Origin: Ptychomitrium polyphyllum
Taxonomy: Eukaryota
NCBI GenBank assembly: GCA_973851085.1
Contig: OZ316775.1
Span: 248,001-312,000 of the forward strand
DNA length: 64,000 bases
Direction: 5' to 3'
The position numbers were made by a program, and so were the translations under genes. The notes under the pieces were generated by a model. That model worked only from the letters and a program-made list of their open reading frames with translations. It searched no databases and was not told where the DNA came from. Shown here in pieces: positions 2,038 to 59,500 of this stretch; within the stretch, counting starts at the first letter, position 1, and each line of letters begins with the position of its first letter.

Positions 2038-2056
2038 CGCCACGCAGGTCGGAGCC

Positions 2057-18600: not shown

Positions 18601-19493
18601 TTAAAAATCCGATCTGTGCATACAATTCGCTCTAAATACACTATGTATAGTAAACATGCACTCACAAACATGCAAAAAATCCCTGCATTTGCAAACATGC
18701 AACAAAGTCCAGACACCAATGATAAAAAGCTCATGTTTAATAAAAGCTTTGTGCTTTTGTGGTTAGGACCAAAGTGAAAAGAATTTGCACGAAAACAAGA
18801 CAAAGCTTACCACTTGACTGCAAGCCCAGATATATCTCCAGATGCATCATCGAGTTGCTGAAGAACTATTTGTGATACTTTGCGTTCAGTATCTGCATCT
18901 AATTTAAAATTATCTTTCTGAAGCTCGTTCAGTAGGTCGGATGTGGCCATATACCGAAAATCCTTGTCTTTTGAAGCAATCTGCACCAACGACCAGAATC
19001 ATCAGGCTCAAAACAATTAGAAGTAAATAGAGAATAAATATGATTCAAGGCCAAGTAATCTCAGGTCCAGTATTCACGCCCAAGTAAAATCTATTCACAG
19101 ACATGCAACTCATAACTGAGATAAATAATCGAGGAAGAAAGGACCAAAGATCTAAGAGAGGTCCATGACTCCATTTACACTTCAGCAGGTCATTGCATCC
19201 AAAATGCTCATATTTCTGCAGTAATCATGGGCTCTTTGGAGAGGTCTTGAAGAAATCTTCAAATTAAAGGTGAACCATGAGCTAAGTCTGAATTAGACTT
19301 AAACCCGATGTTTGCATAGTGTTAATTCCTTCTATTCTCTTAAATATACACTTCGCTCTGACTCCAGAGCAAAGAACGTCGCTTACAAAGTTCTTTTGAA
19401 CGTCTGACGACAGCCGATCTTACAAAGCAATAAACAAAGTTAGAAAGGAGCATTTACCTTTTCTAAAATCAGGCCCACTGCAAGACTCGCCAT
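9687..19493 (-). CDS. CAND1: Cullin-associated NEDD8-dissociated protein 1 (HEAT-repeat SCF exchange factor), about 28 coding exons
   Basis: First exon 19493-19458 is [12 protein letters not shown]. Later exons include [132 protein letters not shown] and [18 protein letters not shown] (10159-10021). Last exon 9819-9687 ends GDIMDLN-TAA. The GT-AG boundaries I checked keep the frame. Confidence 0.96.
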
Positions 19494-26829: not shown

Positions 26830-29453
26830 ATGGGGAATCAGATGGGGTGCTTCTGGGTCGGCGATGCTAAGAAGAAGAAGCCGCGCGTGGTAGGCGGGTT
26901 GCGGAAGCGCGGGGACTGGGAAAATGAGTTGATCGAGCAGCAGGCCTTGGCGATGGCGTTGCAGCAGCAGCACAAGGCACAGCTGCGCTTCGAGCGGAGC
27001 ATGTCCAACCGAGAGGCTGGCCTAGCACCACCCCGGAAGAGCTACTCGGGCAAGACGGGTGGGGGTGGTAGTAGGGAGGAGTTTAAGCGGAGTGCTAGCA
27101 CTCGTGCCCGTCACATTGATGACTTGATGCTCGATCCTCGTCAGTTTCTTAATGGCTCCAAGGTCTGCTCGTCGGTTTTTCTTATCCAGGATTTTCCCTT
27201 CTTCGGACTTTTTCTTGCATGTGGACAATTGTCCACTGTTTTGCAGCTATTCGGCTGTAGGTTAGGGATACTCATCCACCACGTTAAATGAGTTCTACAC
27301 CTTTCCACATCTTGCCACAGTTGCATGAAAGAGAGGGTGCAGTAGTGTCTCTATTCGAATTTCGCTTCTTAACCACCCTCGATTCACATCTGCAACCATT
27401 GAGCAGCAATTTAGGTTGTAGATAGATGTGGTGTGGTTGCCAAACAGGCTGTCTTAGGACGGCTTTGAGGGTTCTTACTTTCGGCATTGTGTAGGATTAA
27501 GTCATATCATAGTGTTATTGGCAATTGTGTATTAGAGAATAATTCGCTCGGAACTCAATCAAATTGTTAGAGTAACTAGGTGTTGCCATGTAAAAGTATG
27601 GCACTCATTTGGCATACTTAGAGCTTGAAACGTTTGGAGTTTAGAAATGCTCCTGAGAGTATGAGACTGCAGCCCTTCAACGTTCTTGCTATTAGAACCT
27701 GGCTATTCCAGGTTTTTGCATGTCATAGTATGGCTGCGTAGGCGAGGGTGTGATGGATACTTCTCGACTTCTTTAGGGTGGTTGAAGCGATGTCCTGGTT
27801 GAATTCGGACTCGTGTGGTCTCAACATAGTGATGTCTTCTTAACCCCTAAGAAGTTTTTAAGATATTTTTGACTGACTAATTAGTGTGGCGTGCAGGACG
27901 GAGTTGTGAAAGCAAGTATTGAAACAAAGCATTTTGTGTTGGTGCATGGAGGGGGCCTCGGAGCATGGTGCTGGTATAAATCTATAGCGTTGCTTGAGGA
28001 GTCAGGGTTGGTGGCTACAGCCATTGACTTGAAGGGGTCGGGTATTGACTCGACGGATCCAAATCATATCAACAGCCTGGCAGTCTACGTTCAGCCGCTT
28101 ACAGACTTTTTAGAGAAGCTGGGATCTGATGAAAAGGTATAATCTTGTTTTTTGAAGTCCTAGCGAGATTGTCAGTTTCAAAGTCGAGAAATTGACCTCG
28201 AAAGTTTGTTTTTTTCCACCAACGTGCTATTTTGTTAGTTCCTACTCACAGAGGTTGTCATAGGAGACAGGCTCTAAGCATAACATTTTCATGGATGTCA
28301 GAACTTGCTAAGGCGTTCAGAGGAGCCTTAAAAAGTTTTTTATTTGATTGGACCTTTCCTCCTCACAGTGGCTTCAATAATGCAGGTTATTCTGGTGGCA
28401 CACAATATCGGGGGAGCTTGTGTATCGTATGCGATGGAGCGCTTTCCCAGTAAAGTGTCGAAGGCAGTCTTCGTGGCTGCCTCTATGATATCAAATGGCC
28501 AGCGGGCGTTTGATGTGTTTGTGCGGCAGGTACTTCCCACTTTCTCCACCCGATTTCTCATCTGCTTACGATATCTTTCGTTAAGGTTTGAATCTGCATG
28601 CATATTTAAACAGGAACAGCATAGTCCCACATGTAGATACACATACAGTATAAGGAAAATATTGCAAAATCGTAGGGTATGTTGTAACTAACCTAAACAT
28701 AACAGTATTTGATTTGGAGTATTGTTGTTTGGTTTCTTTGCTTTCGATCCTTGGTCCGTTTAGCAACATTTATTGCGTGAGTTTCTACAAGAGTGACTTA
28801 GTTTTAACTGGGTTTGAGATGTGGGTAGGAGAAGAGCGAAGACGACTTGATGCCTAAGGCACAGAAATTCTTATACGGAAACGGAGTTTCTAGTGCACCT
28901 ACAGCGGTGGAACTTGACAGAACTTTAATCAAAGATTTGTTCTTCAATGTTAGCCCGGCTAAGGTATTTTTCATGTAACTTTGTTTACTCTTGTGCATTC
29001 TTTGTGTTCTCCTTTGTGCATTCTTTCTGTGAATCTTAAGGATTATATCACAACAATCAAATTGGCAGTTATTGTTGTTTGAGTTAGGATTTGGGAAATC
29101 TGAAAAAGGACCATGTAAGTCACTCGGTCACTCTTGGATCAACCTTAACCTTTTATAAACATATCGTGCAGGATGTAGCCCTAGCAATGGTGTCCATGAG
29201 GCCCATTCCTTTCTCACCAGCTATGGAAAAGATGGAGTTGACCCTTGAGAATTATGGAAGCGTACGGCGTTTCTACATTGAAACAACAGAGGACCAAGCA
29301 CTACCACCAGAATTGCAACGAAACATCATCAACCAAAACCCTCCAGAACAGGTGTTCACTTTGAGAGGCAGCGACCATTCTCCTTTCTTTTCTAAACCTC
29401 AGTCTCTACATAAAATCCTACTTGACATTGCAATGATTGGTGCAAAAAAATAG
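26830..29453 (+). CDS. Methylesterase-family (SABP2/MES11-15-like) alpha/beta hydrolase with N-terminal extension. Exons 26830-27162, 27897-28136, 28386-28529, 28829-28963, 29172-29453.
   Basis: HFVLVHGGGLGAWCWYK, KVILVAHNIGGACVSYAME, YGSVRRFYIETTEDQAL, GSDHSPFFSKPQSL. All four introns are GT-AG in phase 0. N-terminal MGNQMGC and QALAMALQQQH..RFERSMS resemble the MES11/13/14 clade. Confidence 0.92.
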
Positions 29454-38100: not shown

Positions 38101-40077
38101 CGTCCCCAGCATCCCCACCCATGCAGCCCCTGCCACGTCACGACGCCGCAGTCACACAGAGGGGGCTCATCGATGGGCTCCGAGCAACGCCATCGAGTCT
38201 GTGCATGTGCATGGTGTCCAGTACGTAATTGTTCACTTAGTGTGTATTGAATTAATGGCAAACCTTTGCTTAGTGAACATTAAAACAAACTAACAATGTT
38301 GTTGCATACTTACAATTTGAATAAAAATGTGTCATATGGCATTTGAATTCATAGAATTAACAACCTATCATCCTAAATTCCTAATTTTTTTTTTGCTTTT
38401 CAAAATATAAAGTTGCCTAATGCATTAGCATGTTTCTACCACCATCCAAATATAAAACATAATATATATATAAACACATCATTGTTAGCTATTAGAAAGA
38501 TGTTAATTAACACCACAAGATTTTAAGTATCTTGTCTTATTTTCCTAATTTTATTAAACTTTAAAATCCATCATTTTGGAAAACTTAATAATTTTCTTTA
38601 AGACCATGCTTTTATAAAACTTTGGCTAAATGTATGCAAATTTACAAGAACATCTAAGTTACTTATCCAAATTCTGTTATATTTTATATAAGAAACCAAA
38701 TAAGAATTGCACATCAATTAAAAATACAAAACCTGCTAGAAAATCAATTTATAATGAATAATAAGGTGTCACGTGAAGTGACATTGGAGGGCCACATCAC
38801 GTCAATTAGTTTGTTAAATGGACTCTTATAGGAGTCCATGTTATATTTGGATGAGTTTCATCCAAATTTCAAGGCTCATCCACTTTGGGTTTGGTTGTAA
38901 GTAGGAGAAGAGCTTCTTGACTTGACATTGTTGTCAAGTCAAGTCTTGTGAGTGTATTTTTGGAGAAGAAACATATGTTGTTGTTTTATTGTGGCTATGG
39001 TTTTAATAAAGTCTTAAGCTTTCTGCTACATTTGCACTCTTGGATTCTCCCTTTATGAAATGAGAGATAGCTTGACTCTTATGTGAATGATTAATTGCTT
39101 GAGTGTGGAAAAAAATTAAGTTACTTGACAACAATGTTCTCATATTTACTATAGATCTCAAAGTTGAGTTTAAGTAATTGAAGAAAGTTTGTGAGTACTT
39201 ACTATGTTGTTGTAGAGTGCGGTTAGAGAAAGAGAACTCAACAAACGGTGTATGATTTGGACCTAAAATCTTCACATTTCCTAGATTTCAGAATCTTCAT
39301 TTTTGTGGATTTTAGAATCTTCATTTCTGTAGATTTTAGACAGGAGTCCTAAAAGCGTCAAGGACCTAAATTTATCGGGTCCTAAATCCGTCAGGGACCT
39401 AAATCCGTCTCTATACAGCCTCTAATTTCTCAATTACTGCGACTCCATAACTTTTGCAAAAAATGTTATTTTTGAATTTCGTTTGCAGATTTGGGTTCTC
39501 TAGGGGTGAATACATATATTGGGAAAGAAAACTTTTGGTGATAAAAGTTTTTCAAAAATCACATTTTTACGTGTTTGTTTTAAAATAAAAATAAAACTAG
39601 AGTCTAAACTTTGGAGATGGATTGTAAGGATATTTTGACTCAATTTTGAGCAAAATTTGCACATATATTTGGAATTTTAGCCATTTAATCCAATTTTAGT
39701 GTTGGATTGGCTTTGTGGCAAATTGTATTTCCTAGTGTTGCTATTTTCATTGAGAGATTTGTATTTTTGAACACTGCGGCCAAAGTTTCCCACTATCCTT
39801 TTAGTTTAAGATTTGAGATAACACTTTTAGTGTTTTCTTTTGCATTGCAAGTTTTTGCGACTTTGTGGCTATCAGCCGCAGGCATGTGCTACTTGCTCTA
39901 ATCCACTTGCATTTTGCAATTTGTTGTTGGGAAGAAAATCCAGGCTTTGAATTTCTGGTTTTTGTTATGGTATCTTCCCAGGTTGCGAGCATTGTTGCTG
40001 TTGGTTTATAGTGTTGCTCCATTTTGTATTGTCCATTTGTTCTTTAGATAGTTGCAAGTACCCAAGTAGTCATTTTT

Positions 40078-41580
40078 ATGGTGCAGACACGGAGTCGATA
40101 TTATCGATCTCCGTCATTAGACTACTTAAAAGGTGCACACACCAAAGACTTTGAGCTAGCGGTAGATACCAACAAGGCTTTTGAGCCTATTTTGACGTTG
40201 GATACTACTAGTAGGCTTCGGGTTTGGAGTGTCGACACATTTGACGAGATGGATGACGATCCTTGCCATGTCGTAAGGGATCAATTCTCCGGAAGGGCTG
40301 GGGGCATTTTCCTACCCAATTAGAAGCTCAGGTTTTGGACTTGGATGAAAAAGAAGCGCCAGCGGTCTCTGAATTTCAATAACTGGTACGCATTTGAGCT
40401 GTTGCCATAGCATTTGGAGTTTGAGGCACTTTAGACATATGAGGTGTGGACTCATGAGAATGAGCTCCAATTGCGTAAGGTGAAACGCTATTGGGAGGCT
40501 TGTGCGGAGCTCATTTCTGGCCTGAAGGAAGGTGCAGTAGCCAATTTGATCCCTATAATGAAGATAGAAGAGAAGCCTGCAGAAGGGAGTGGCTCATCTT
40601 CCAAAGACACAAAGGACAAGGCTTCGGTAGTGAGTCAATCCTCTGTCACAATATCACAATTGGCGCAAGCTACGCCAGTAGCGTTGTCTGCAATTGATCA
40701 GCCGCCGTTGTTTGAGCCACTTTGCTTGTTCATAGTTCATATGGAGGTTGAGTATGGAGGCTTCAGGCGTGATTAAATGCAACACATCCAAGACTTCTGT
40801 CGGAAGAAGGAAGATATTCCACATACCATGTATATCCAATTGGCGAGGTTTGTAATGGAATCTGGAGGTGTATTTGCAGAGAGTCAGCTTGTCAAGATCT
40901 TTTTGTCCAAGATTGACAAACAACTGTTAGACTTGGCTATACCAAGGGTTATTTTCAACTACCACGGTTGAAAAACGTTGGCTCAAGCATTTACCAAAGT
41001 TGAGATGTGTGATCGATTTCTCTATTAGTACACTGTCAATGATATGGTTTCTTGGATGAGAGATGCTTCCAAGTTCAAAAAGGCTGCTATTGCTACAAGT
41101 AGTTTGGCAAAGACTTAGGCTGAGAAGATTCTCCATTATTGAGGGTGTGGTAAAGCTGGCCATACCAAGAATGATCCTAATTGCCCAAAGAAGAAGAGAG
41201 CTTCAACGTTAGATAAGTCTAAGCAGAGGGCAGATGTGGTTAAGACTGCAGAGAAGGCCAAGAAGAAGCAGTTGAAGTATTCTTATTGTGGCAATCTCAA
41301 TCATGATGATGATCACTGCTTTATTTGACATCCGGAGAAGCAACCTGTTTTGAAAAATAAAAAAGCATTAGAAGCCAAGATTACAGAGTTGGAGAAGAAA
41401 TTCCAGACTATGGCTTCATTGGGTCATGTTACTGACTTTAGAGTGGTTTCTTGGGGTGGAACAAGCACTTCTGCTTCAAATGTTTATATGTTTGGGGCTT
41501 CAAGGGAGATGGTGGCTGCAATTGCCACATGTGCCCAAACAACAGCCAAAATGATGACAACCAACAGAGGTGAATCACAA
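40078..41580 (+). pseudogene. gag of the outer element, with two degenerate CCHC zinc knuckles
   Basis: Fragmented ORFs at 40078, 40444, 40777 and 41350. Knuckles (Y*)GCGKAGHTKNDPNC at ~41137-41184 and YSYCGNLNHDDDHC at ~41278-41319. Many in-frame stops. Confidence 0.75.
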
Positions 41581-42072
41581 TAGAGCGTACGTACGTATCA
41601 TAGTGGTTCATTAGATTAGATTGGCCAAGCCCGGTTGCCATTATCATTTGGCTTGGCAAATGCTAGTTCTGCATGTCGACCAATTCTTCCAGCTTTAGCA
41701 CAAGATGGAGGAACATCTTTTAGAAACTTGGCACACATTTTGGCACACAAGGTGTTGCATATGCCTATTTTCTCCAGTATTGAGTTGACGACACCAAATT
41801 TTCATCCAACTAGGATTTTTCACTTGGTTGGCAAGATATTGGAAGGCAAGGTGGTTATGCCATCTCTTAAAGTGGCTCAAGTAGTCACTAGGCATTCTAC
41901 AAATGAGGATTTGGCTATGTTGCAGGCCAAGCTTGCAGCTAAAGCCATTGCAGCATTTGTTGCAATTACTTTACAGCAAATAAAGCTAAGTCCTTTATTT
42001 GATGAGCCATTGGCTACATGAGTGGCATATTTATCTAACGTTGCAGCTAGGCCTGCTTGAGAATGTCAAAAC

Positions 42073-42459
42073 TTGCAACCAATAGTGGTGCGGCTAGTTA
42101 ATGACAACAATGTACTTGTTATTAGCTCTATTGGTGGCAATGCAACTTGTACTACACCGGTGAGAGTTATTATGGACTTTGGTGCTCAGCCAGTCATGAT
42201 TGGCAAGCGACTTGCTCAAGAGCTAGGTCTAGGTGATGCAGACTTTGAGCCTTGTGCATTTATTATCATCACTTCAGTTGGAGGCACCGAGCATACTACT
42301 GGCTATACTAGACAACCATTGCAATTGATTCTCCGCATAATTTCTGGACCTCTTTATTTACACTTGTCTCTACAATGTACAATAACCACTCCTACCAACT
42401 ATGAAATTTTAATTGATCAGCAGGCACTTTATCCGCTCGGTTTTGGTTTAGACAATTAA
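42073..42459 (+). pseudogene. Aspartic protease of the outer element
   Basis: VIMDFGAQPVMIG corresponds to the retropepsin D[ST]GA motif (TCT>TTT). YEILIDQQAL corresponds to the ILG motif. Confidence 0.75.
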
Positions 42460-42749
42460 ATTGAAGAGGCGTAGATTAAGCTAGGTTGGTCCGCAAGAGA
42501 AAGAAGGAAAGAATTCATTCATGTAGCATTTGCAGCAATTGCCATGACTATGTCGGCAGAGACTTTATTTACTTGCACCGCCTTAGCAGTAGACTTACCT
42601 TGTGGACCTATTCTGCTAAAGGAGAAATTTGCATTATGTCTAGTTCAGTGGAACAACATGGTTTACTACCTTTAGGGGTTCCTGCACAACATTGCAAAGA
42701 TCCATCACTATCTACCTTTGCCCATCCTATTCATTGGCATCCACCAACT

Positions 42750-43465
42750 GAGGGTATTACCCTGGTGGAGCTATTTTCAAGCATTGGTATCGATTTGGCG
42801 GTAGTTTTGGAGGCCGGACTTAAGGTCCGGCGGTACATTCACGTAGATATTGGCTTTGTATCCAATTGAGCAGCCCAACATCACCTCCAAAGGTTATTGC
42901 TTCTATACCCGGAGCAGTTACCTTCATCTGCCATCCGCGCTTGTTTTGGCCAACTCCCTCAAGATATCACTCTCATTAATGATGAGGATTTGAGGAGATT
43001 GGGCCATGTTGACTTATTCATTGTTGGATGGCCTTATTAAAGCCATTCACGTGCCGGAGCAGGTCGAGATTTGGACGACCCCTAGTCAAGTTTATTTGCA
43101 AACTTGATCTGACTCACACACTGGTGGTTTACACACTAAGCTACATCGCTTGTATTGTACACCTCTCCTTGAAGAATGCCCGCAACACTAAGGGCACAAG
43201 GGGGACCCTGGATGGAGGTCCGGGACTTGTGGCGCCGATATTAAAGTGGCCCGAGTAGGCCAACTTTGGAATGCCCAAATTAGAGACATATCCGAGATCT
43301 TTTGCATTCCGAGCATATGGGCCTTGCAGGGTTTGGGATTCACATTCACAAACTCATGAAGAGCCTACTATAGATGAGAGGGAGCGCTATGTAGTTTCTG
43401 ATAGGCACTACAATTGTTCATGATCTCACTAAGGATCAACGTCGCTTTTTTTTGGGCCAAGTTAT
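42750..43465 (+). pseudogene. DNA (cytosine-5)-methyltransferase domain within the outer element's pol. Its C-terminal end continues at 50004-~50070, after the nested insertion.
   Basis: Motif I LVELFSSIG (42762-42788). Motif II-like YIHVD. Motif III-like QDITLI. Motif IV VDLFIVGWPY*SHSRAG (43026-43040, restorable to GWPCQ). Motif V DDP*SSLF. Motif IX EPTIDERER/AM*F. Motif X RRFFLGQ(A)M|DFNTL, split by the insertion. Confidence 0.88.
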
Positions 43466-44036
43466 TGTTAGGGACACAAAAACAAGAAGCAGAAACAAAG
43501 TGTTTCCCACGAATTAGCTTCCAAGGAGCTAATGATTAACAAGAATTTGATACAAAGACTAGAACAAGGCAAGATTCAAGATGATCTACAACTTATATTG
43601 GCAAGACTAAAGACTACCTTGTCTTGCCTCCTATTTATATTATGACGTTTGTATCTCTTAGATTACTTCTAAAAAAGTTGCCTATAAGGCTTAAGAATGT
43701 TCTAGAAGTCTAAGGAACCTTCCCAAGAAATTTTCCAAAGATGTTGGAAGCTTCCTCAGAAGCTTCCAAGGAGTTGAAACCTTCCATGGAAGTTTTCTAA
43801 GATGTTGGAACCTTCCTTGGAGATTCCCTAAGGTGGTAGAATTTTTTAAGGAAGTTTCCTAAGATAATGGAACCTTCCTAGGAAGTTTTCTAAGGTGGAG
43901 GAGCTATCTTAGGAAGCTTCCTAAAAAGATAGAAAGACTATGGAGACATTTAAAAGTATTCTAAGAAGCTATTATAGTATACTAGAAGGTCTTATAATGT
44001 TTTGAGGACTATGTTGCCTGATCTATGTCCGTAACA
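43466..44036 (-). repeat. 3' LTR of the nested chromovirus
   Basis: Direct repeat of 49432-50003. Contains a ~20-30-bp internal array (GGAACCTTCC..GGAAGTTTTCTAAG) at ~43700-43925. Adjacent to the PPT. Confidence 0.95.
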
Positions 44037-44702
44037 TCACCTCCCTATTTAGCGACGAGTCCTATGAAGAACTGTTTCTTTGGCTTGTTTGTCACATTTC
44101 TATCACTTCTAACATTTGTGGAAGGAATGAAGCAACATATTCTGCTCGTTTTTATTTATTCATTGGTTCAACTAGTCCTTGCAAAAAATACCAACAACTT
44201 CCAGCCAAGACTTCTGTTGTTGAAATGTTCCATCTTAAGATTTGATCTTGATTAAGTCCTTCAAAACATCCTCCAAGTAAGATTTCGGGTCCTCTTTGAA
44301 TGACTCGTCCAATTTCTAACAAGATGACTAAAGTACAAGCATCTAAATTAAGACTGGAATGTGAAGGGCATCTAGCCAATACTTTTGCACAAGGTCGTAC
44401 TTGACGTTGGAATGTTCCTTTCATATCTTGGCTTAGATCCTCTGTTTTCAAAGGTTGAGAAAGTTGATTTGGCTCAACAAATGTTGTTGTTGATGAAGGC
44501 ATGGCCGACTGCTCTTCACGCATATCCATAATAACACAAAGATTTGACATGCTAGCTAGGATCTAGAAATGATCTATTTTGGAAATAATATTGTATACAA
44601 TTAGAGGTTTGGATATCTTTCCTCCCTTCTTATACTTGTCTATGAAGGAAAAACTTCTCTATAAAGCTAACAGCTACTGATGATACATCATCACTGACCT
44701 GG

Positions 44703-47700
44703 TTATTGAGGATATCTTTGATGAAATTCGGATACCTTCGCAGATGCATTTGTTACATTCAATGAAGGTTTCCATGTTCGATCATTGATGCCATATCCTT
44801 GCTAATGTATAAAATACTCTACACATCCGTTCTTGATGCGTTAATTCAAGATCTCTTCCACTTCATATTAGATTTCATTATTGATTTCCAACAGAGGAGG
44901 CGGATGGACAATTCTCTCTGGTATACATGATTTGTTATAGCTTTTCAACAACAATACGTGGAATACTGGATGAATTTGCATGCTTGGTAGTGGCTTTAAG
45001 CAATAACTAATCGGATTTATCTATTTGCTGAAATCAAACGGATCCAACCTTTGATAGTTCAACTTCTTTGATGGTCTTTTTGTTTGTATATTTTGTCATA
45101 GGAGCCATACGCTATCTCCAACTTTGAACTCTAAATGATCCTTTCGATGGCGATCTGCATAAGTTTTGTAACAATCTTGAGCTTGTTGTAACTGGGAGGT
45201 AATTTCTTGATGGATTTTAGTAAGTTGAATTGCAAAATCCTTTGCTGCAGGACTTCCAACATGCTTCACTTGAAATGGATCTGCTCGAGGATGATGCCCA
45301 TAGTTTGCAAAGAATGGACTTTGAGTTGTTAAAAAATGCACCGTATTGTTGTAAGCAAAATTTGCCAAAGGCAAGAGATCCATCCAACTGTCTTGTTGGT
45401 AGTTTATGCTACAACAAAGGTACTACTCCAAAATTTGATTCACATATTTGGTTTAACCATCAATTTGCAGATGGTGTGCTAAAAAAAAGTTAATCAATAC
45501 GTGCAACAGCTAGAATAGAGCCTTCCAAAAGTTGGAAATGAACTGCGGCCCTCGATCGGATACAATATCATCTGGTAGTCCATATATGCGGTAGACGTGA
45601 TTTAGAAACAACTTGCCAGTTTCTTCTCCCGTTGCCGTCTTGTTGCATGGAATGAAATATGCCATTTTGGTAAATTAATCCACCACTACCAAAATAGAAT
45701 CCTTAGAATCGGAATTTGAAAGGTCCGTGATAAAATCCATTGATAAAGACAACCATGGACCCTTTGGCACTGGAAGCGGATGGAGGAGACCATGAGATTG
45801 GTGCCTTGGTACCTTGGCTCTTGCACAAGTATTGCATAATCGAATAAAATCCTTCACGTACTTCCACATTTGTGGCCACCAATAGTCTCTTGCAATCAAC
45901 TCCATTGTTTTATTGAATCCAAAATGTCCTGCTGCTGGAAAATCATGACGTGATTGAAGGATCTTCAACCGCAAAGGGCCTAGAGGTAGGTACAAAAGTC
46001 CTTTATAATAAAGTAGGCCCTCTTGGAATTCAAAATCCTCATCGCTATTTGAAGGACCTCCATTATCTTTGAGGCGCTTTTTTATATTTGATACAAAGAC
46101 GTCATTCTTTAAAGCCTTCTGAATTTCGTCAAGATACGATGTTGTCGTTATAATCGTTACTTTCAATTGAAGATTCTCTGGTTTCAATAACATAGTCCTT
46201 TGTTGATTCAAAACATCATCTCCAGGTTGAGGAGCTAAATAAGATCTTCGAGATAAGGCATCTGGCTTACCTTGCAAGCTACCAGATCGGTAGGTAATGA
46301 CAAAGTCAAATCTGGAAAGCGACATACTCCACCTTGCTTGACAGCGATTCAAAACGTGCACACTCATGAAATATTCCAAGTTCTTGTGGTCTGTGTATAT
46401 CGTAATGGTATGTTGAGCTCCTTTGAACAAGTGTCCCCATTCTTCAAACGCATCCACAATTGCAAGTAGTTCTTTATCATGTATATCATAGTTGATCTCT
46501 GCCGCTAAGAACTTCCTTGAACGAAAGACAAGAGGACAAAGTCTCCCGTCTTCATCATATTGTGAGAGTACTGAGCCAAGCGCAAAATCTGAAGCATCCG
46601 CTTCCAAATAAAAAGGCTTTGATGGATTTGGATGAATAAGAATTGGAGCCGACGTGAATGACTTCTTAAGACTTTGAAATGCTTTTTCCGCCTCCTCATC
46701 TCAAATGAAGTTTTGCTTCCCCATAAGACGTATTAATGATGCCGCAATTTTGGAATAATTCTTGATGAATATTCTGTAGAAGTTTGCAAATCCCAAGAAG
46801 CATTAAACATCTCGAATTGATCTTGGCGTATTCCACTCCATGACAGTGCTTATTTTTTTCTTATCCATATGGATTCCTCCTTTGGAAATGATGTAGCCTA
46901 AAAATTCAACCGATGATTCATGGAAAAGGCACTTCTCCAATTTGGCATGTAATCCTCGCTGGGGTAGTTTTTCTAAGACCAATCGCACATGACATTCGTG
47001 GTCTTGTTCATCCTTTGAATATATCAAAATGTCATTCAAGTAGATGACTACAAAATTGTCCAAATGTTCATGGAAGATATCATTCATCATGTATTGGAAG
47101 ACAGTAGGGGCATTAATAAGGCCAAAAGCCATGACATTGTATTCAAAATGACCATACTTAGATCGAAAAGCTGTCTTCCATTTGTCTCCTTCTTTGATGC
47201 GTACAAGATTGTAGGCTCCTCTAAGATCAATTTTGGTGAATATCTTTGCTTGGCCAAGTTGTTGTAGGAGTCCTGAGATTAATGGTAATGGATAGCGATT
47301 CTTTTTTGTTACTTTATTGAGGCCTCGATAGTCCACGCACATACGTAATGATCCATCTTTCTTCTTTACAAATAAAATGGGTGCTCCAGCAGGTGATTTA
47401 GAATGTTGAATGAAACCCTTTCCAAGGTTTTCATCAATATATTCTCTCAAGGCAGCCAACTCAGTTTGTGATAAGTTATAAATAGGTCCAAAAGGTGGTT
47501 GGGCTCCTTCTTGCAACTCAATGGTACAATCGTATGGCCGGTGCTTTGGTAACATGTCCGCATTCTTCTTTTCAAAAACGTCTTTATAATCTTGATATTG
47601 ACGAGATATGTTTGGATTAGTCTCTATTATAGAGCTAGACATTGGTGCGGCATAAATGGTATAAATTAGTTCATGATATACTGCTCTCATGAGTGTTTTA

Positions 47701-48170
47701 GCTCCAATAAATGATGGTCCAAGATTTCTCGTACCTTGGCGTCTTTTCCTTAAGACCATACTCCGTGAGTGCCAATCAATGTTTAGATTATGTAATTCAA
47801 ACCAGGAAAGGCCCGAGACAATAGGACTTGTTCGGCATTAAATGATGTTGAAGACAATCTTAGATGCATGGTCCTCTAAAACAACCTTTAATGGTTGAGT
47901 TTCTTTAATAACGTTGTTAGATGCAAGAGATCGTCTGTCAATAACTTCAACAAGTGCGGGGTATTTTTTGTTCACTAGCACTATGTGATGTTTGGTTGCA
48001 AAATCCTTGTCCATGAAACATGCCGTTGCACCAGTGTCTAATAGAGCCTCACTAACTATTTCATCATTTAACAATTTAATTTTGATAGAAAATGTAAAAC
48101 AAGAGGTAGGGTTTGAAGGTAATAAGAGACCTTGATTTAATGGTCGTTTCCTTCTGGTGTCCAATTGCAT
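44703..48170 (-). pseudogene. pol of the nested chromovirus (PR-RT-RH-INT-chromodomain), with stops and frameshifts
   Basis: ORFs 47838-48170 (PR), 46803-47759 (RT), 45675-46607 (RH and integrase HHCC), 45096-45383 (integrase C-terminal part). Chromodomain YEVEEILN*RIKNGCVEYFIH*QGYGINDRTWKPSLNV at ~44869-44755. Confidence 0.92.
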
Positions 48171-48178
48171 GGTCCCTA

Positions 48179-49195
48179 CTATGACTGGGCAGCTTCATTT
48201 TCCAACTCCAGCATTGTGCTTTGAGCCTTAAAGGTAGTTCTTTTAATTTGGAAATTGCACACTTTATATCCAAACTTGCCACAATACAAATATAGGTTTT
48301 TTCTTTGACGCCTTTCTTTTTCTTCTAGAGCCAAACATCTAAATTGGGCAGCATCAATTTGTGTAGGTTCTGGTCCTTGTGATTGGCTTTCCGATATTCT
48401 TGAAAAAGTGCTAGCCATGTTTTGATGTACTAATTGCCATCCCAAGCATTGTTCTTGGCGCCTTTCAAATAGTCTGTTGTCACATGCTATTGTTTGAGTG
48501 ATGAATTTGTTCAATGTTTCAATTCTTGGCATTGTGAGTATCAAGTCCTTTACATTCTCTCTTAAATTCCATCGGAATTGTTTAACCAAGGCTTTATCAT
48601 TCCAATTAAGGTCGCAAGTTAATTGTCAAAACTCTGCAGCATATGTATTAGCTAAGTGTTGTCTTTGTTGTAGACTTTGAATCCTTGTCTCAGCCCTCCT
48701 CTCTCGGTCGATGTCTCCAAAAATAGATGTCAATGCTTCTATGAAAGCATCTAAGTTGTTTAATAATGGTGACTGCTTTTCCATTAATAGTACAAACTAC
48801 GATAGTGCATTGTTTATTAAAAAAGTGGCTACAAATCCCACTTGAGTTGTGCCATTAAGATAGCAAGATGGATGCAAACTAAGGAAGAACCTTAGTTGTT
48901 GGGCAAAGCCTCTTAATTTTGATCTTGATCCATTGAATTTGGCCGGCATGCAAATCTTTGGCTTTGTATGGGTTTGACGTAAGCCTTCTCTTCCAATATT
49001 GGCCTCTTACAATCAAACAACCTCTTCATATAGGCTTTGAATATCACAATTGGCTTTTTTAGCTTGCCGAGTGTGTTGCTTCAAATTATTGGTAATGTTG
49101 AAGCAAGCAAGTTCCGTTCAAACTGTGTTTAATAACTCTTGAAGGTCTGCAATAGTTGCAAATCTATTCTCTAATGTTCCAGACACGTTATCCAT
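48179..49195 (-). pseudogene. gag of the nested chromovirus
   Basis: ICMPAKFNGSRSKLRGF, QFRWNLRENVKD, GPEPTQID, and a degenerate knuckle LYLYCGKFGYKVCNF. Stop at 48181-48179. Confidence 0.85.
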
Positions 49196-49431
49196 TTCTT
49201 AAGACTATAAAAAACAAGAAGACTATGAGTACTTTCAAAAGAGGGTAATCCACGTCCTTTAAAAGAAATAATACTTAGTTCTAGAAGAAAAAACCAACTT
49301 TATGGTGCCAGCTTAGAGGAGGGTAATCCGCAACCTCTAAGACGCTATGGAATCCTAAAGAAGACAGGTAATCTATAATCTTCTTCAAAGAACCTTAGCT
49401 CTGACAAAGATGAAGAGTATTCTTGCCAAAC

Positions 49432-50003
49432 TATTAGGGATACAAGAAACAAGAAGCAAAAACAAAGTGTTTCCCAAGAATTAGCTTCCAAGGAGCTAAT
49501 GATTAATAAGAACTTGATACAAAGACTAGAACAAGGCAAGATTCAAGATGATCTACAACTTATATTGGCAAGACTAAAGACTACCTTGTCTTGCCTCCTA
49601 TTTATATTATGACGTTTGTATCTCTTAGATTACTTCTAAACAAGTTGCCTATAAGGCTTAAGAATGTTCTAGAAGTCTAAGGAACCTTCCCAAGAAGTTT
49701 CCTAAGATGTTGGAACCTTCCTTGGAAATTTCCTAAGGTAGCGAAACTTTCTTAGGTAGTTTCCTAATGAAATAAAACCTTCTTAGAAAGTTTTCCAAGG
49801 TGGTGGAACTTTTTAAGGAAGTTTCCTAAGATGATAGAACCTTCCTAAGAAGTTTTCTAAGATGGAGGAGCTTTCTTAGGAAGCTTTCTAAGAATATAGA
49901 AAGGCTATGGAGACATTTAAAAGTATTCTAAGAAGCTATTATAGTATACTAGAAGGTTCTATAAAGTTCTAAGGACTATGTTGCATGATCTATGTCTGTG
50001 ACA
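49432..50003 (-). repeat. 5' LTR of the nested chromovirus, with TATA box
   Basis: Copy of 43466-44036. Minus-strand ATATAAATAG at 49607-49598. Confidence 0.95.
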
Positions 50004-50479
50004 ACTATAGACTTCAACACTTTGGTGTAGGTTTTTGGCATATCTCTTGTTGTCCAACAACATCATGATGGCCATTTGCTTTTCCTTAGGTCAGAGAGCA
50101 ATGGTCAGGGGGCAATAGAGCCAAAACTTAGTGAGGTTGAGGAATTTGTGTTAGTTTTTTGCTTGAAATGGCATGCAACAAAAGAGCTACGGGCTCAATG
50201 CGTTTTTTGTTGCTTTGGCATAAGACTTTGGAAAAGCAGATGCCCAAGAGATATTTTCACAGCTCTTTTTGCAAGGTACTCCATATCCTGGTGAAACCGC
50301 CATCTCACACATGGATGATGGTAGTGAAGCTCCTCATTTGGCTTCTAGTAAAGATGATGGAAGCATGGAAGTTGTTTCTGCCACAGATTAGCGGTTAGAG
50401 GCCGTGTTGGTTTATAGTGGTTCTCAATTGGCAAAGAAAGAGACCAAAGAGTTTGATGATTGGCCATTGGAATTAGGGC

Positions 50480-53400
50480 CACATCTTATAGGTGCGGAAG
50501 CACAAAGGATACGAGATTTTATCTACTTGTATTGCAATTGTTATGCCTTTAGTTTCAACGACCTTGATGGCTATAGAAGCAAACTCATTCACATTTAGTT
50601 GGAGGATGATCATCCAATCTTTCGACGGCCTTACAAATTGAGTGCTTCAGAAAAAATTGGTGTTTAAACTCGTTGTCAAGAGTTATGAGCTGCAAGTTTG
50701 ATTGAGATCTCCAATGAAGAGTATGCTTGTGTCTTAGTGATGCCTTCTAAGAAAGATATATTTGGCAAGTGGATAGAAAATTGGATGTGTGGAGATTACC
50801 ATCCAATTAATCAAAAGACTAAGTCAGACCGGTATCCAATGCTAAAGCCAGAGGAGCTATTTGATGCAGTTGGATTCTCTTGAGGTTTCAGCACTTTGAA
50901 CTTGCAATCTGGCTATCACCAATTGCCATTGTTTGTGGAAGACCAAGTGAAGACAGTATTTTGGAGAATTAATCAAGATTACAAGGATCAACTCTATCAT
51001 TGGAAGTTTCTTTCATTTGGCCTGAAGAATGCACTAGCTAAGTTTTAGAGGTTGATGGACCGGATCTTGATTGGCTTACCATTTGCTAGATGCTACATTG
51101 ATGATGTTATCATCTTTAGTAGTAGCCCACAAGAGCATAAGAAGCATTTACAGACAGTGTTTGAGCGATTACGGCAATGGAGATTGCGCTTACACCATGG
51201 CAAGTGTAAATTCTTCCACGACTAATTACCATACTTGGGCCACATGATTTTTCCATGAGATTTGGGCGTGCAGCAAGCAAAGGTAGATGCTTTGCAAAGG
51301 ATTCCAGCTCCTATCAATGTGTCATGGCTTTGAGCTTTTCTTGGCTTGGCAAATTTCTATCGCAAATTTGTCATGAACTTCAGCTTAATTGCAAAGCCTT
51401 TAACCACTCTTACGGGCAAGGACTAGCCATGGACTTGGAGTTGTGAGCAGTAACAGGCATTCGATATGTTGAAGCAAAGGTTGGATTTAGCTCCAGTGCT
51501 TTGACGTCCAGATGCTACTAGACCGTTTCAATTGCATACAGACTAGAGTGCAGTAGATTGGAAGCGGTTTTGGCACAGAAGGATGATGTTGGGCAGGATT
51601 ATGTCATTGCATTTGCTTTTAGAAGCAATAACAATGCGGAGTCCAACTACTCATCTTATGAGGGGAAGCCTTGGCAATAGTTTGGGCCATTGCTCACTTC
51701 CAACCTTATTTATACGGGCAACGGTTTACATTGGTGACTGTCCATCAACCTTTGAAGTGGCTAATGGAGTCAAACAAAACTGTTGGCAAGCTTGCTAGAT
51801 GGGCATTGTTGCTTCAAGAGTATGACTTTGAGGTTGTACATCGAGCAGGCCTCATCAATTTGGACGCGAATGGATTTTTCCGCAATCCAAGTCTTTCAAA
51901 TTAGGACTTGATTAGAGCCAGATGGCATGGAGATTGCAATAGAGAGGCAGTGCCTGGGAGGCATGCGGTAGCATATCTTACTTTGATATCAGGCTCAACA
52001 CATGAGGTGTCTAATCAAGGCTTAGATGAAGAACTTGACAGAATCCAAGTTGTTGGCGATGTGTGGGAGGACCTTGCGGTCTTGCACAAGCTTCAACAAG
52101 GATCATTTCCTTTAGCTATCTCTGCTATAGAGCACAACAGGATTAGTCACTGAGTAGCAAGATTCCGTTGGGATAATGGCTTGCTATTTTGTGTGTGGCC
52201 GGATGGAGCTAGGTGCATAGTTCTAAGGCCAAATTAGAGAGCTTCCTTAGTGCAGCAAGTGCACAAGGACCTTGGACATTTTGGAGTGCGCAGAATACAT
52301 TCTATGTTGCGCAGTCAATATTGGTGGACTAGCATATATCAACAGGTTGCCATATATGTTTCTTGGTGTGAGGTGTGTGACTAAGTTAGGTCCAATTTTA
52401 ACACCTTATCACCTCAGTTGAGACCTTTATCCATCATGGATTTGGGCTACCATTGGTCTTTAGACATTGTTGGGCCACTTGTTGTCATTCCACGTGGAGC
52501 TAAATACATGTTGGTGATGGTGGAGCATTTTAGCAAGTAGATTGAATTTGTGGCTCTACCACAAAATTCTTCCGAGTTGGCAGCCATGGCATTTCTTGAT
52601 CGCGTCTTGGCACATTTTGAAGCACCTGCTGAGGTGTTAACTGATCAAAGGAGAGAGTTTATTGGATCTTTTGAGGCTTTGTGTTCTAAGGCTTTGATTG
52701 ATCATTGTACAATGTCCAAAGATCACCCTGAGGCAGATGGCTTGGCTAAACGGGTTGTTCAGACCGTAAAGCGTGAATTACGGAAGTATGGATTGTTTCA
52801 TGGCAACCATCCTGATTGGAACTTGATGTTACCGTGGATTGCAATGGGTTACTGCTTTAGCAAGCAAGGATCTTTGGCTTCTTACAGTTATTACCAATTA
52901 TTATATAGACGGGAGCTAAACCTACCTAGCTCAGTGCGTGAGAAGTTGGCTCCAGTTGTGGACTTGGATGACCCTAATATTTAGGCTCAATGTCCACACG
53001 ATTGAGAAAAATTCTTCAAGAGGGCTATGCCTATGGCAATGGAGAACTTAGCTATTGCTCAACATTGTGATAATTTACGATATGCTTGTATCCATAGTAA
53101 AGCTTATTGACCTCAGTTGCAAAGATTCTCTAAGGAAAATTATGTGTATCTGCAACGTGAGGCTTCTACAACACTTGATGTTAAGGCGGGGCGCACAATT
53201 CTTTGTGTGAAGGATGTGTTACCTAGTGGTATCTTGTTGCTTGAAGACAAAAATGGACGAGAGTGTCGGAAGCATTCAAAGAATTGTGTTCCATGTCATC
53301 TTCCTATTGATGGTTCTGTACATTCTGAGCTAGCGGTTGTGCCAGATGGCCTTCTTTGTTTTGTATGTCGTGAGAAGAAAAGAGCTGCTACCATGTTATT

Positions 53401-53500
53401 GTGTGACAAATGCCAACGTAGATGGAACATGGCATGTTTGATATCACCCCTTTCAACTCTACCTTCTGGAGATTGAATTTGGCCTTGTTGTCGGAAGTCT
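50480..53500 (+). pseudogene. RT-RNase H-integrase-PHD portion of the outer element's pol
   Basis: RT: MCGDYHPINQKTKSDRYPM, YIDD at 51094-51105. RNase H: FQLHTD*SA, LAIVWAIAHFQPYLYGQRF. Integrase: HKDLGHFG..WCEVC, WSLDIVGPL, VLTDQRREF, HPEADGLAKR. PHD finger at 53357-53491. Confidence 0.92.
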
Positions 53501-55466
53501 TCCAACCATTTGTCAAATGGTGACAAGAGTTGAGGACTTCTTGGAAGTTTGCCACATGTTTTTGTATTGAAGTTGCCATTCAGCTGGTAGATATAAGTCA
53601 TTGGTTCAATGCTAAGCATTAAGAGAAGTTGATCAAGGGATTCAACATCCAAAATCATTGAAGGCGATTAAAAATGGGGCTCATATTGCATCCCGCCTAT
53701 AATCTTTTAGTTATTTCTCCACTCAATTGCTTGATCCTTTGTATTTGCAACAATACCAACATGGATGTGTACAAGTATTGCAGCAACATTATCATGGCGA
53801 TCATCCACAATAACGTATGTGTTTGTTCCTAGCTGATTGGAGGGACTCCTTATTTGCGAGGGGGGGAACTTGAAGGTGTGTTTGTTATGCATTTGGGTTT
53901 GGTTTTGATTTTATATTTGATTATTGATGCTCACACTCAATTTGTTGTGTGTAACGATCTTTGTTTACACGACTGCTGTTACGTAAAGTAACATCAGAGG
54001 GCCACATCACGTCAATTAGTTTGTTAAATGGACTCCAGTAGGAGTCTATGTTAGATTTGAATGAGTTTCATCCAAATTTCAAGGTTCATCCATCTAGGGT
54101 TTAGTTGTAAGTAGAGAATAACTTCTTGACTTGACATTATTATCAAGTCAAGTCTTGTGAGTGTATTTTTGGAAGAGGAAACTTATGTTATTGCTTTATT
54201 GTGGCTATGGTTCAGTAGCCTTTAATAAAGTCTTGAGTTCCCTCCTATACTTGCACTCTTGGATTCTCCCTTTATGAAGTGAGAGATAGCTTGATTCTTT
54301 TGTGAATGATTAGTTTCTTGAGTGTGGAGAGAAATTAGGTTCTTGAGGATGTGCTTGTTATGCATTTGGATTTGGTTTTGATTTCATATTTGATGATTAA
54401 TGCTGGCACTCGATTTGTTGTATGTGACAATCTTTGTTTATACAACAAAGGTGTTTTTTATAGAAAGTATGTGTAATGGCTTTGAAAGAAGCTCTATTAA
54501 AGCCCAAGTCCAATATACATTTAAAAATCGTTCTAAAAGAAGTAGAGAATTTAAAATAACAATGAATTAGATTTATAATAGAAGCAAATTAAAACAACAT
54601 AATGACTATAAACCATAGAAGAAATGGCACTTGAATACAATTAGTATTGTTAGAATAGATGACGATGTTATATTGGTAGTATTTAAGAAATAAAAGTGCA
54701 AAGCAAACAACATCAACATTTATAGCCTTTTGTATTGAAGATTATCAAACACATTTTAAATATATATGTTTAATATTCACATTTGAATACATTTATTAAT
54801 TATATTAAATATATTTTGAATATACTTTATTACATAATTAAAAATATAATGGATCCACCAAATAAAGCATTGTATTTTATAACCCATGGCATCAAGTGCA
54901 AAATCAATAAAAAGAACATATTTTTTATTCTTTCACATAAATTTGTATAAAAATTGTATTAGTACTTGTATTTTGAATACAATCTAATACATGTGTTTTG
55001 ATTCAAAGTACATACATATGCTAAAATATTGAAGTGTCATTTTTACTCTATACTAAATTATAATATTTTCTTTGCTAAATTCCATTAAATATGATAAAGC
55101 TTATGAGTGAAAATTGTATGATATTCAAAAGAACAAAGATACTTCCAATTTCCTAAGAATTATAAATTATTACATATTTTTAATGGCTTAATTTTGCAAT
55201 CATAATTTAAGATATTATAGTAGATATCATGCATCCTAATGTTCTCAATTTTAACTATAGGTATGGCAATATTGGTGCTAGTAGAGCCTTGCAAAATTTC
55301 TATATGCACATCATATATCATAACATATATCAAATGGTAGAAAGAGTATCATTGAACTTTATAACTTAGGAATTTTCAATACAAAAGTGGATCCTTCAAT
55401 TGCATGTATTTTTGTACTACATTATTTAACTGAAACAATTCTCAATCAAAGAGCACCTCAAACTTA

Positions 55467-55586
55467 ACAATACATTAATTTTTTTAATAGAAACATAGTG
55501 GTTGCTGGGATTTGCAAGTGTATGTGACAATACATTAATTTTTTTAATAGAAACATAGTGGTTGCTGGGATTTGCAAGTGTATGTG
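55467..55586. repeat. Perfect 60-bp tandem duplication
   Basis: ACAATACATTAATTTTTTTAATAGAAACATAGTGGTTGCTGGGATTTGCAAGTGTATGTG x2. Confidence 0.95.
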
Positions 55587-56561: not shown

Positions 56562-59500
56562 TCATAATACAACTCCCGATACCCAAGGTACAATGGAAGG
56601 TGCTGTTGGATGTTGTTGTCTGTATACTTCGTCGTAGTGTCCTTTAAAATTGATTTGTGGTTCATCAGCCTGCCACGAAAAACAACCTTCTTTAGGAGTA
56701 TGCCTTCTATTTATCAAGATGCAAGATGACTTGACTCTAATCGGCTCAGTTAGGTTTATGTAAACCAATTGCATACAGCTCCATAAAATAAGCCCATGAA
56801 GAACACGGTGTGATAGTAATGCAGCGCCAAACAACATTGGTACAATATGACAGCAGCGAGAACTAACCTGCTTGAGCCAGCATTCATGATTCTTGTGGAT
56901 ATATTTATCAGGAGAATGGCATCCACCTTCACTAGGACAGTACACCCAGATACTGCATTTCTTTTGTCCCTCTGTAGCATTTTTGGCCTGATCTAGGCAC
57001 GCTTGGCAACAATCAGCTGCACTTTCTACATGATGCGTGAGCCCCCATCGAACGGCTTCTCCCGAATAATCAGTGTGTATCTCTGCGTGGCATTCTGAAG
57101 GTATTGCTCTCCCTGGTATAATCTTATGTTCTGCACAGAATGGCAGAGATTAAAAAGCAAAAATAATAGTATTAAAAAATCAATAAAACAAAAACAAAAA
57201 ACAAAATTCATTAAAACAAAAAGAGTATTGAAAGGTCTGCCTTCAACTCTAAAAATGTAAGACGTACAGAAGAAGCAAACTTAATAACAAGGAATCACAG
57301 ACAAATAACTCATGTAATCACATACAGGGGTCAATAATCACATCCATCCAGTAGGAAATGAACAATTTGGCATACAACAAAATTTCTTGGACTAAGATTG
57401 GACAAATGCTAGCCAGTAAGAAATAAAACACACCAATGCAAGAACAATACAGTAGTTCACATTGTGAGAAGACAAATATCAATTCTATTTATATGACAGA
57501 AATGCACTAAAATCCTTACAAAATTCATCCTGTTAAAATAAGAATGATTCAAAGGCAACAGGATTTCAAAAAAGACAAGATCGGCTGTGCATATGATAGT
57601 CGCTTGAATTTATGTTTTTGTAACCATGCTTCTTTAACAACATGGCTATTGTTACTACCTTTTACAATGGTAAGTTGCAGCTCTACCCTTCAGAAACAAA
57701 TCCACTAATAACCTAACATCATCTTAAAGCAATAGCTGACACCTGAACCTTATTACACGCAACAACACACCTTTCGAACGAGACTCTCCAAATCAAATTA
57801 CCAATATTCAATTTCAATTAGCAAAAGCGGCCAAAGCAAGACTGGATAGAATCGGCTATGCCCATCTAAATTGATAGCTTTTTGTTTTCATAAGGCATGC
57901 TTCACATAATAACATGTTGGTTAAACACCAAAGGTTTATAAAGACCACTTTCAAAATTATTAAGCTATAGCACTAGCCCTAAAGAATAATTACTGCTAGT
58001 CTAACTCAATTTCAAAAAATGTCCATGTATATATATAGAAACAAAGAAACGGATTCTTTTAACTAGTCATTGCCAATAGATTTGAAATCACTAAGATGTA
58101 ATTATGAAAGACTTTCCAATTAAGTTGACAAAAATACCCACACTTCAACTTCAAATATTTTCTAGCACCTTCATGTGAAACTTAATATAGCTGTTACCTT
58201 CCAAACCTGAAAAATGTAATCCGGCCTAACTTTTCAAGATAATAACAGGACAACGATATAAAACGTTGGAAAAATAGAACCCAAGAAGGGACGGTCATGT
58301 TCTGGACATAAACAAAACCTTAAGACAAACAGCGCATTGATTCAATTACCCATGTCAACTTTCTGAGTCGACTCTCCACTACTACGCTTAATATCCTTCA
58401 GTATTCCTTCGCCAAGAAGTTGAACCCTAGCATCCACTCCTTTCTCTTCACTGCCTGTCACAGCCAGCATATTATAAAAAGTTAAATTTATAGACTCTAA
58501 AGCCATTGCGTTTATTTTAAGAATTGTGCTTTAGATTATGACCAGTATTCTCTTCAGTAATAATAGGAAGTGTTCATCAGAGAGATTTGTTTCTTAGATA
58601 TGATTAGTCCCCTTACCTGGCGTAATATCACTACTTCTCTTCTCCAGCTTTCTCTTCTTCCATTCCTCCAGAGCTACAACAATAGAGCAACGGAGATCAG
58701 TAACCATAGAGCTAATCACTAGGACAGAAGCAAAAAGGTTTAATCTTTTGACAGATATTAAACTGAAGGAGAAATCAACAGAATTTATGATGCTATTATC
58801 AATCCTGTATTTCACCGAGAATGCGAATGTAGAAACAGAATCGGTAGAAATAACTACCTTTTTGAGTAGCCTGACCGTTACTAAGCTTGAGCTCACGTAG
58901 TCGGTTAGCGAGCTCCGAGGCTACCCTTTGCCTCGCTAAATTCAATTCAGCAGTCCTATGAATCTCCAATTCTGTCTCTTCTTCAATCTCCTTCACCTTC
59001 AAGAACCATCCCAGAAAAGCAATCATCCTAAGAGTCCGTACTCCCTCCTTAGGGTTAGGTCATATTCTCGTTGATCAGTTCTTAATCCAGCGAAATTTGA
59101 CGATGAGTATTCTTAATCTTCGTCTCTCAATGACTATCTGGAAAAGAACCTACATTCTCATAATTGTAGTCTAAGTGGTCAGGATATCAAAGCTGGAATG
59201 GACTGCAAGGCGTGATGGTGGAGACGCGGATCAGCCACAAAAGATCTATAACCAGAAGAAAAATATCCTCAAAACCTACCCGCTCAATCAAGTGAACAGG
59301 AAGCAACTCGCGTCGCAGCTGATTGGAATCCTCAATGCGCTCCAACTCTTCCTTCGTTTGCACAACCACTCCTTCCAAACCTGTCATCCTCTATTGAAGT
59401 CAGACTTCTCTCTGCCACGGCGCTAAAATTTCATGACCAGGAACCGCGCCCCAAGACTGAAATCGGAAGCCAAACCACACCGGACTCAACTCGTAACCAC

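Follow-up and report, generated by a model that had tools for sequence, protein, structure and literature searches.

We have found in a moss genome a decayed Ty3/Gypsy-type retrotransposon that carries a DNMT3-like cytosine methyltransferase between its protease and its reverse transcriptase (RT). The element occupies positions 38767–54447 of the stretch analysed here (64,000 nucleotides of Ptychomitrium polyphyllum, hereafter the window) and is flanked by a 4-bp target-site duplication (TSD). By its domains and repeats it is a dead copy of a bryophyte (moss, liverwort) Ty3/Gypsy-type family whose first ORF comprises Gag, a protease and a conserved DNMT3-like methyltransferase, and we regard this identity, with the methyltransferase as a family-level feature, as practically certain. 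Domain order, the stop between the ORFs with its context, purifying selection, repeats, TG..CA ends, TSD and the lack of a tyrosine recombinase were seen directly in the sequence, from which we infer enzyme activity, readthrough of the stop and a circular intermediate. Taken as a whole, a reading that joins the identity of the element with readthrough, self-priming, an end-joined circle and methylation of its own DNA appears fairly probable. The parts of the window copy are:

38763–38766 (no strand): left TSD, 4 bp, identical to 54448–54451.
38767–39122 (plus): repeat A1, whose TG is the left end of the element; 86% identical to 53977–54341.
38925–38939 (plus): predicted RNA 5' end and self-primer inside A1; 15-nt perfect complement of 39123–39137.
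39123–39137 (plus): primer-binding position, a complement of the repeat of the element itself, without a TGG tRNA-type site.
40078–41412 (plus): gag, with premature stops and two zinc-knuckle-like motifs; 65% identity to the Gag of intact locus L008.
42076–42525 (plus): aspartic protease (PF13650, E=0.0016; 77% to L008).
42738–43152 (plus): N-terminal part of the DNMT3-like methyltransferase, motifs I–IV, broken.
43153–43271 (no strand): 119 bp of unrelated sequence in place of 321 bp with motifs VI and VIII of intact copies.
43272–43465 (plus): C-terminal part of the methyltransferase, motifs IX and X, with a 2-bp frameshift.
43466–50003 (minus): nested unrelated Ty3/Gypsy element with two ordinary LTRs of ~570 bp (89% identical) and a 5-bp TSD.
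50009–50388 (plus): end of the methyltransferase and a linker of ~110 codons, the end of ORF1.
50389–50397 (plus): family-conserved in-frame stop TAG between ORF1 and RT; the next six bases are CGGTTA.
50581–51898 (plus): RT and RNase H, with stops and frameshifts (PF00078, E=5e-21; 80–84% to L008).
52232–53161 (plus): DDE integrase with H2C2 zinc-binding domain (PF17921, PF00665; 81% to L008).
53342–53506 (plus): PHD finger, integrase C-terminus (PF00628, E=0.0017; 2.6e-10 in L008).
53856–53868 (plus): G-rich polypurine tract adjoining B1, at the same position in 8/8 elements examined.
53869–53974 (plus): repeat B1; 86% identical to 54342–54447.
53970–53981 (no strand): junction of B, 2-bp spacer and A, a decayed palindromic internal integrase-end site.
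53977–54341 (plus): repeat A2, matching A1.
54342–54447 (plus): repeat B2, which follows A2 without a gap; its CA is the right end of the element.
54448–54451 (no strand): right TSD.

From gag, with its start codon at 40078, to the 3' end the window copy aligns at 81–86% to locus L008, where a single TAG separates two ORFs of the same frame, ORF1 of 1359 aa (Gag-PR-DNMT) and ORF2 of 1047 aa (RT-RNase H-integrase-PHD). L008 resembles a collapsed assembly of several copies and is without A-B-A-B ends; L009 resembles it but is frameshifted upstream of the protease. The original prediction spoke of an LTR retrotransposon, which is right in so far as the element is of Ty3/Gypsy type with a DDE integrase: the order PR-RT-RH-IN, the TG..CA ends and the 4-bp TSD (seen in the window, L034 and L030) are those of canonical Ty3/Gypsy elements, whose TSDs measure 4–6 bp. 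Ordinary LTRs do not form part of the picture, the canonical end-LTR pair and tRNA primer site being absent and the two ends being A and B. The methyltransferase had also been placed inside pol; it closes the Gag-PR ORF instead, with a conserved stop standing between enzyme and RT. Both complete insertions carry the same TSD, AAGG (window 38763–38766, L034 1675–1678), while other left flanks differ, and this sharing is probably due to chance.

The window copy had been called dead, and dead it is, with many stops and small frameshifts, the nested insertion and the loss of motifs VI–VIII. The peptides quoted earlier from ORF 42486–42869 and beyond are present in their places; motif I lies at ~42768, IV at 43026, IX at ~43376 and X at 43452, and the domain resumes at 50009. 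Where the catalytic Cys is expected the sequence reads Tyr, and a stop follows. The nested element falls inside motif X, splitting the domain, and its decayed 5-bp TSD (43461–43465 and 50004–50008) makes the proposed removal of 43466–50008 exact, this being the nested element plus one TSD copy. With X at the stops, the N-terminal piece gives a weak match to PF00145 (E=9e-4), scoring 19.2 bits where the curated cut-off is 22. Besides the 321 bp that L008 has and the window lacks, whose 119-bp replacement has no other match in the window or the fetched loci, the 87 bp just upstream of this loss are also gone. At motif I intact relatives read FAGIG, not FSGIG, the form first proposed. The suspected bias of the defects is real in aggregate: the copy differs from L008 at 1460 sites, and C>T or G>A changes account for 704 of these, vs 281 reverse transitions, a direction that is only relative because L008 is not the ancestor. 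Their rates are 28% at CG, 25% at CHG and 14% at CHH, and the excess at CG and CHG (about twice CHH) is as expected after host methylation. Observed/expected CG ranges from 0.27 to 0.78 in the elements, but as the nested DNMT-less element is depleted too (0.59) this is not element-specific. The LTRs of the nested element (K2P 0.113) have diverged about as much as the A repeats of its host element (0.121), and both insertions are therefore of similar age.

Elsewhere in the window, a related gag relic at 7149–8111 (plus strand, 36% identity to the L008 Gag) has no protease, DNMT or RT match near it; it represents an older member of this group that has been truncated. The window also holds a GC-rich plant eIF4B gene with internal repeats (2033–3985, plus; PF06273), a long multi-exon host gene at ~9000–21000 (minus) which, from its translations, we take to resemble CAND1, an alpha/beta-hydrolase exon (28332–28688, plus), a PAN-domain ORF (56565–57149, minus) and non-coding short tandem repeats with units of 55, 58 and 60 bp (23710–23984, 24423–24538 and 55467–55586).

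The N-terminal methyltransferase piece of the window finds 15 relatives at 61–79% identity among 1116 candidates (best E 1e-61). Among named proteins the nearest is KAH8931579.1 of Sphagnum fallax, which falls into one cluster with P0002, the 79% match. A scan of public metagenomes gave 44 loci, ~35 with the domain in a retrotransposon context and the others weak matches, and a profile search of 1.84 billion representative proteins gave 346 at E<=1e-30. Three layouts were counted among fetched proteins of at least 600 aa. The layout of the window, Gag-PR-DNMT (n=42, with redundancy), ends 82–166 aa past the domain and includes named members from Sphagnum fallax and Marchantia polymorpha (MARPO_0063s0090, MARPO_0008s0049, MARPO_0009s0240). 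In another, a single ORF holds PR-DNMT-RT-RH-IN; 12 of these proteins are complete as far as IN, Klebsormidium KFL_009030040 among them. The remaining one is RT-RH-DNMT-IN-PHD (61 complete), and since the DNMT there lies between RNase H and integrase, the domain has moved within the polyprotein at least once; some proteins of this group (P0067–P0266, L042 566–4711) have G-patch or Tudor domains in addition. In four other public runs, contigs span 26 to 30 of the 30 bins of L008 (60,432 contigs in one run), which shows that some hosts have the family in high copy number. No tracheophyte names appear among the matches listed (15, 61 and 94), most of which carry no host name. Viral contigs gave no match to P0003, and the alignment query retrieved from them only six distant phage-type methylases. 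Some element proteins are filed in NCBI as bacterial, under Candidatus Obscuribacterales and uncultured Leptolyngbya (P0003, at L007 716–2080, and P0052). One with the Obscuribacterales label, HEY9806811.1, matches part of L007 without a difference over all of its 455 aa, and in L007 PR and RT surround this part; these proteins are likely plant DNA in metagenome bins.

Intact relatives, for which a search had been proposed, turned out to be common: 38 of the 42 Gag-PR-DNMT proteins keep all six motifs (I, IV, VI, VIII, IX, X). The enzyme was rightly described as a C5 methyltransferase of linear motif order, I-IV-VI-VIII-IX-X being unpermuted in the relatives, and is more exactly DNMT3-like. 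The family profile matches DNMT3A best (E 1e-23), followed by DRM (1e-13), M.HhaI (5e-10) and DNMT2 (2e-6), and the predicted fold of the L008 domain (pLDDT 87) places DNMT3A/B/C in the top Foldseek ranks (E 3e-19, TM 0.70). The domain is under purifying selection, with dN/dS of 0.10–0.17, similar to the protease, in four of six pairs, the other two being saturated in dS. In a quick DNMT tree, rooted with four phage-type methylases, with no host plant DNMT3 rows and a window row spanning 38% of columns, all DNMT-before-RT sequences form one clade with the Marchantia and Klebsormidium element proteins (46 rows, SH-aLRT 97), which agrees with the suspected kinship with the charophyte case. The 13 stop-bearing elements of the RT tree are also one clade (support 1.0); the Klebsormidium RT (KFL_009030040) falls outside this moss clade, nearer to the RT-RH-DNMT-IN group. 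DNMT and RT trees largely agree: distances are correlated over 94 elements (Mantel rho 0.72, reached in 0/999 permutations), and of 48 supported DNMT splits 32 are shared with the RT tree and 11 are in conflict.

Capture of a host DNMT3 or DRM fragment, once by the window copy or recently by mosses, is most improbable; it could appeal to the host DNMT3 genes that bryophytes have (PMC5890265) and to a tree without any host plant DNMT3, but dozens of relatives, some with identity as low as 45%, have the domain at this very position, as expected of the fixed family feature foreseen by the original prediction. The single clade with the Marchantia and Klebsormidium proteins, the mere ~22% identity to DNMT3A/B and the lack of the permutation seen in DRM point the same way. 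As to function, the original idea that the element methylates its own cDNA or integration site is plausible; the methyltransferase would mark CG in the new DNA of the element, and we consider the chances evenly balanced that its own cDNA is the target. There is a lesser, though considerable, chance that the domain is kept for another job, be it binding of nucleic acid in the particle, RNA methylation or action on host chromatin at the insertion site. The Klebsormidium methyltransferase domain was inactive in yeast, a result which its authors called inconclusive (PMC5890265), CG depletion is not confined to these elements and the domain stands before RT or after RNase H depending on the relative, all of which would suit such a job. 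However, motif IV is kept in 41 of the 42 Gag-PR-DNMT relatives and motifs VI and VIII in all 42, and the related SymbioDIRS-Dnmt3 domains methylate CG de novo (PMC5890265).

The stop that ends ORF1 is present at the same place in 25/25 copies (24 loci and the window), 58–64 codons before the RT anchor; these copies represent about four lineages, and in several cases two of them look like duplicate assemblies of a single insertion. It is followed by CAR-YY in 23 of the 25, vs 6 of 380 other nearby in-frame stops. The contexts are TAG CAACCC (10 copies), TAA CAACCC (8), TAG CAGTTA (2) and TAG CAATCA (2), together with single cases of TAG CAACCA, TAG TAGCCA and, in the window, TAG CGGTTA. The type I (TMV-like) readthrough signal of plant viruses is UAG-CARYYA (PMC5382211, PMC2194720); strict CARYYA occurs in only five copies, CAACCC in 18 and a TAA stop in eight. 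Folding of the RNA after the stop gives z = -2.7 and -3.0 in two of six sequences and values near zero in four, and we claim no conserved structure there. The simplest reading, and a probable one given this context, is that RT-RNase H-integrase-PHD is made by stop-codon readthrough. The methyltransferase would then be made at Gag levels and packaged, and RT and integrase at the lower level of readthrough.

The repeats follow the order A-coding-B-A-B (A1, coding region, B1, 2 bp, A2, B2), complete in the window and in L034, whose repeats are arranged alike but unrelated in sequence; the B-A junction is also found in L008, L009 and L011. A polypurine tract stands directly before B in 8/8 elements, and no TGG follows A in 10/10. 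The sequence directly after A1 complements a stretch inside A, with 10–17 perfect pairs in nine of 11 elements and no such match in the other two. The 15 nt of the window were not reached in any of 1000 shuffles, and a compensatory C/G swap distinguishes the window from L008 within the pairing. In many elements a TATA box lies 26–28 nt upstream of the predicted RNA start, which was itself inferred from the TATA position, and a second element group of unrelated sequence shows the same self-priming geometry, with TATAAA 26 nt upstream in 6/9. The transcript would start inside A and, in the manner of Tf1, pair through its first ~15 nt with what immediately follows A, and such pairing makes it very probable that the element is self-primed with the 5' end of its own RNA.

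The primer site begins at the end of A, and the polypurine tract stops at the start of B. Between B and A, integrase-type TG/CA inverted ends face each other across the 2 bp and make up a palindrome whose intact form, GACAGCTGTC, is found in L009, L011 and L034 and is one base off in L008. From the positions of polypurine tract, primer site and integrase ends, the real LTR would therefore be B+2 bp+A. Ordinary reverse transcription with this LTR would give BA-coding-BA, whose ends are without integrase signals; joining these ends would produce a circle, and integrase opening its palindromic B/A site would leave A-coding-B-A-B. A circle or concatemer is, on these joints, somewhat favoured as the intermediate. 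LTR circles are usually treated as dead ends, and a circle route is unusual for integrase-using elements. The A2-B2 joint links exactly the end of A to the start of B in the window and L034, and A-to-B joints are found in contigs of runs X2, X6 and X12. The joint of L030/L031, likely one rearranged insertion, retains ~10 nt of primer-site sequence plus filler, which end-joining can leave. Right after the CA of B, flanks differ in 163 contigs of X12 and 8 of X6, and in L020 and L023 (right ends only) B1 runs straight into the flank, which makes them no more than candidates for an A-coding-B form. A single hint that this repeat layout is wider comes from L042 (RT-RH-DNMT-IN), where a G-run and a near-palindrome of similar kind occur in the tail. 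No tyrosine recombinase was found; L008 has only two ORFs longer than 170 codons, and the second holds rve.

Both parts of this reading, readthrough and circle, have a competitor. RT-IN could be obtained by splicing, as in Ogre elements, by re-initiation or through a promoter of its own, with the stop never read through. This is unlikely: the +6 base does depart from CARYYA in 18 of the 25 copies and the post-domain linker is weakly constrained (dN/dS 0.36–0.57), but in diverged intact copies one stop alone interrupts a frame that is open on both sides, CAR-YY persists where the flanks can no longer be aligned, and the first in-frame Met beyond the stop is not conserved, lying anywhere from codon 3 to codon 117. 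For the repeats, an RNA running from inside A1 to inside B2, as in Ngaro or PAT, would pass the A2-B2 joint on by inheritance, and the internal B-A junction would only template the ends of a linear cDNA, inserted normally by integrase. The layout is indeed that of split-repeat DIRS elements (PMC5890265, PMC7192593), and most A2-B2 joints are precise, the one imprecise joint being in the rearranged copy, as an RNA-templated joint would also predict. Such inheritance leaves unexplained, however, that in groups of unrelated sequence the end of A coincides with the primer site and the start of B with the polypurine tract, and that primer-site bases are kept in L030/L031, and we find it rather doubtful.

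The PHD finger of the integrase has its nearest solved relatives in CHD4, PHF12, PHF21A and KDM5. Several such fingers, like the ADD domain of DNMT3, read unmethylated H3K4, and the PHD finger of the element may steer integration to nucleosomes with this mark. PHD fingers are common accessory domains of Chlamydomonas transposons (PMC8557442). Tentatively, and with less than even confidence, we may picture an old green-lineage group, abundant in bryophytes, in which an end-joined 2-LTR circle cut inside the LTR would be the normal integration substrate, DNMT3 would be packaged at Gag stoichiometry and a PHD-bearing integrase would replace the ADD domain of DNMT3 as chromatin reader. If this is true, each new copy arrives already methylated.

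A 2019 opinion paper describes methyltransferase-carrying retrotransposons as absent from land plants such as tracheophytes (PMC6338049), and the present family extends them to land plants. By title or abstract start, subscription journals and Repbase aside, we found no report of bryophyte DNMT-bearing Gypsy elements or explanation of such repeats. As mosses and Marchantia are genetically tractable, the question of why a transposon carries an enzyme that normally silences it becomes testable. The bryophyte DNMT3 gene counts, and the 'bacterial' methylases of some MAGs, may include such elements.

Among known systems, the closest is KnitGypsy-Dnmt3, for which de Mendoza et al. (2018) noted DIRS-like repeats with Gypsy domains (PMC5890265). 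Named kin of the family come from Sphagnum, Marchantia and Klebsormidium, and the last is likely KnitGypsy-Dnmt3, K. nitens KFL_009030040 (PR-DNMT-RT-RH-IN, 45% identity in the domain) being likely an element of this type. Both have an unpermuted Dnmt3-like domain under purifying selection in a Gypsy-type element with DDE integrase and the order A-coding-B-A-B. DNMT and RT share one ORF in the alga, whereas a stop separates them in 25/25 copies from our land-plant group, which is therefore a related variant and not the same family. The main text of that paper does not mention a PHD finger, and the parts of it covered here, Fig. 4c and the main supplement aside, give neither self-priming nor a mechanism for the repeats. 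The repeat layout, noted there without explanation, points to circle integration by a DDE integrase. Troyka was considered and rejected, having CG..CG ends and a 3-bp TSD and being known only from animals (PMC12440569), vs TG..CA and 4 bp here.

In Tf1-type priming, RNase H cleavage releases the primer. With Tf1 and sushi the family shares complementarity between the sequence after the 5' repeat and the predicted RNA 5' end, and the lack of a tRNA site; it differs in its pairing of 15–17 nt, a PHD finger instead of a chromodomain, permuted repeats and the methyltransferase. Tf1/sushi self-primed LTR retrotransposons are mentioned in PMC2864245. Split-repeat DIRS elements (PAT, Ngaro and SymbioDIRS-Dnmt3 of Symbiodinium, which also carries a Dnmt3 domain) have the same A-coding-B-A-B order and an internal junction of the two ends, but the moss family encodes a protease and a DDE integrase, is flanked by 4-bp TSDs and lacks a tyrosine recombinase. 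An in-frame stop followed by CAR-YY is shared with type I readthrough, SIRE1, MuLV and Tca2 (PMC5382211, PMC2194720), for the last of which the route past the gag-pol stop was an open question (PMC2194720); the stop of the moss family lies between PR-DNMT and RT, not at gag/pol or pol/env, and its +6 base is often C. Finally, DNMT3A/B are the best match in sequence and fold, with the same motif order, but the element enzyme has neither PWWP nor ADD, and a PHD finger sits on the integrase instead.
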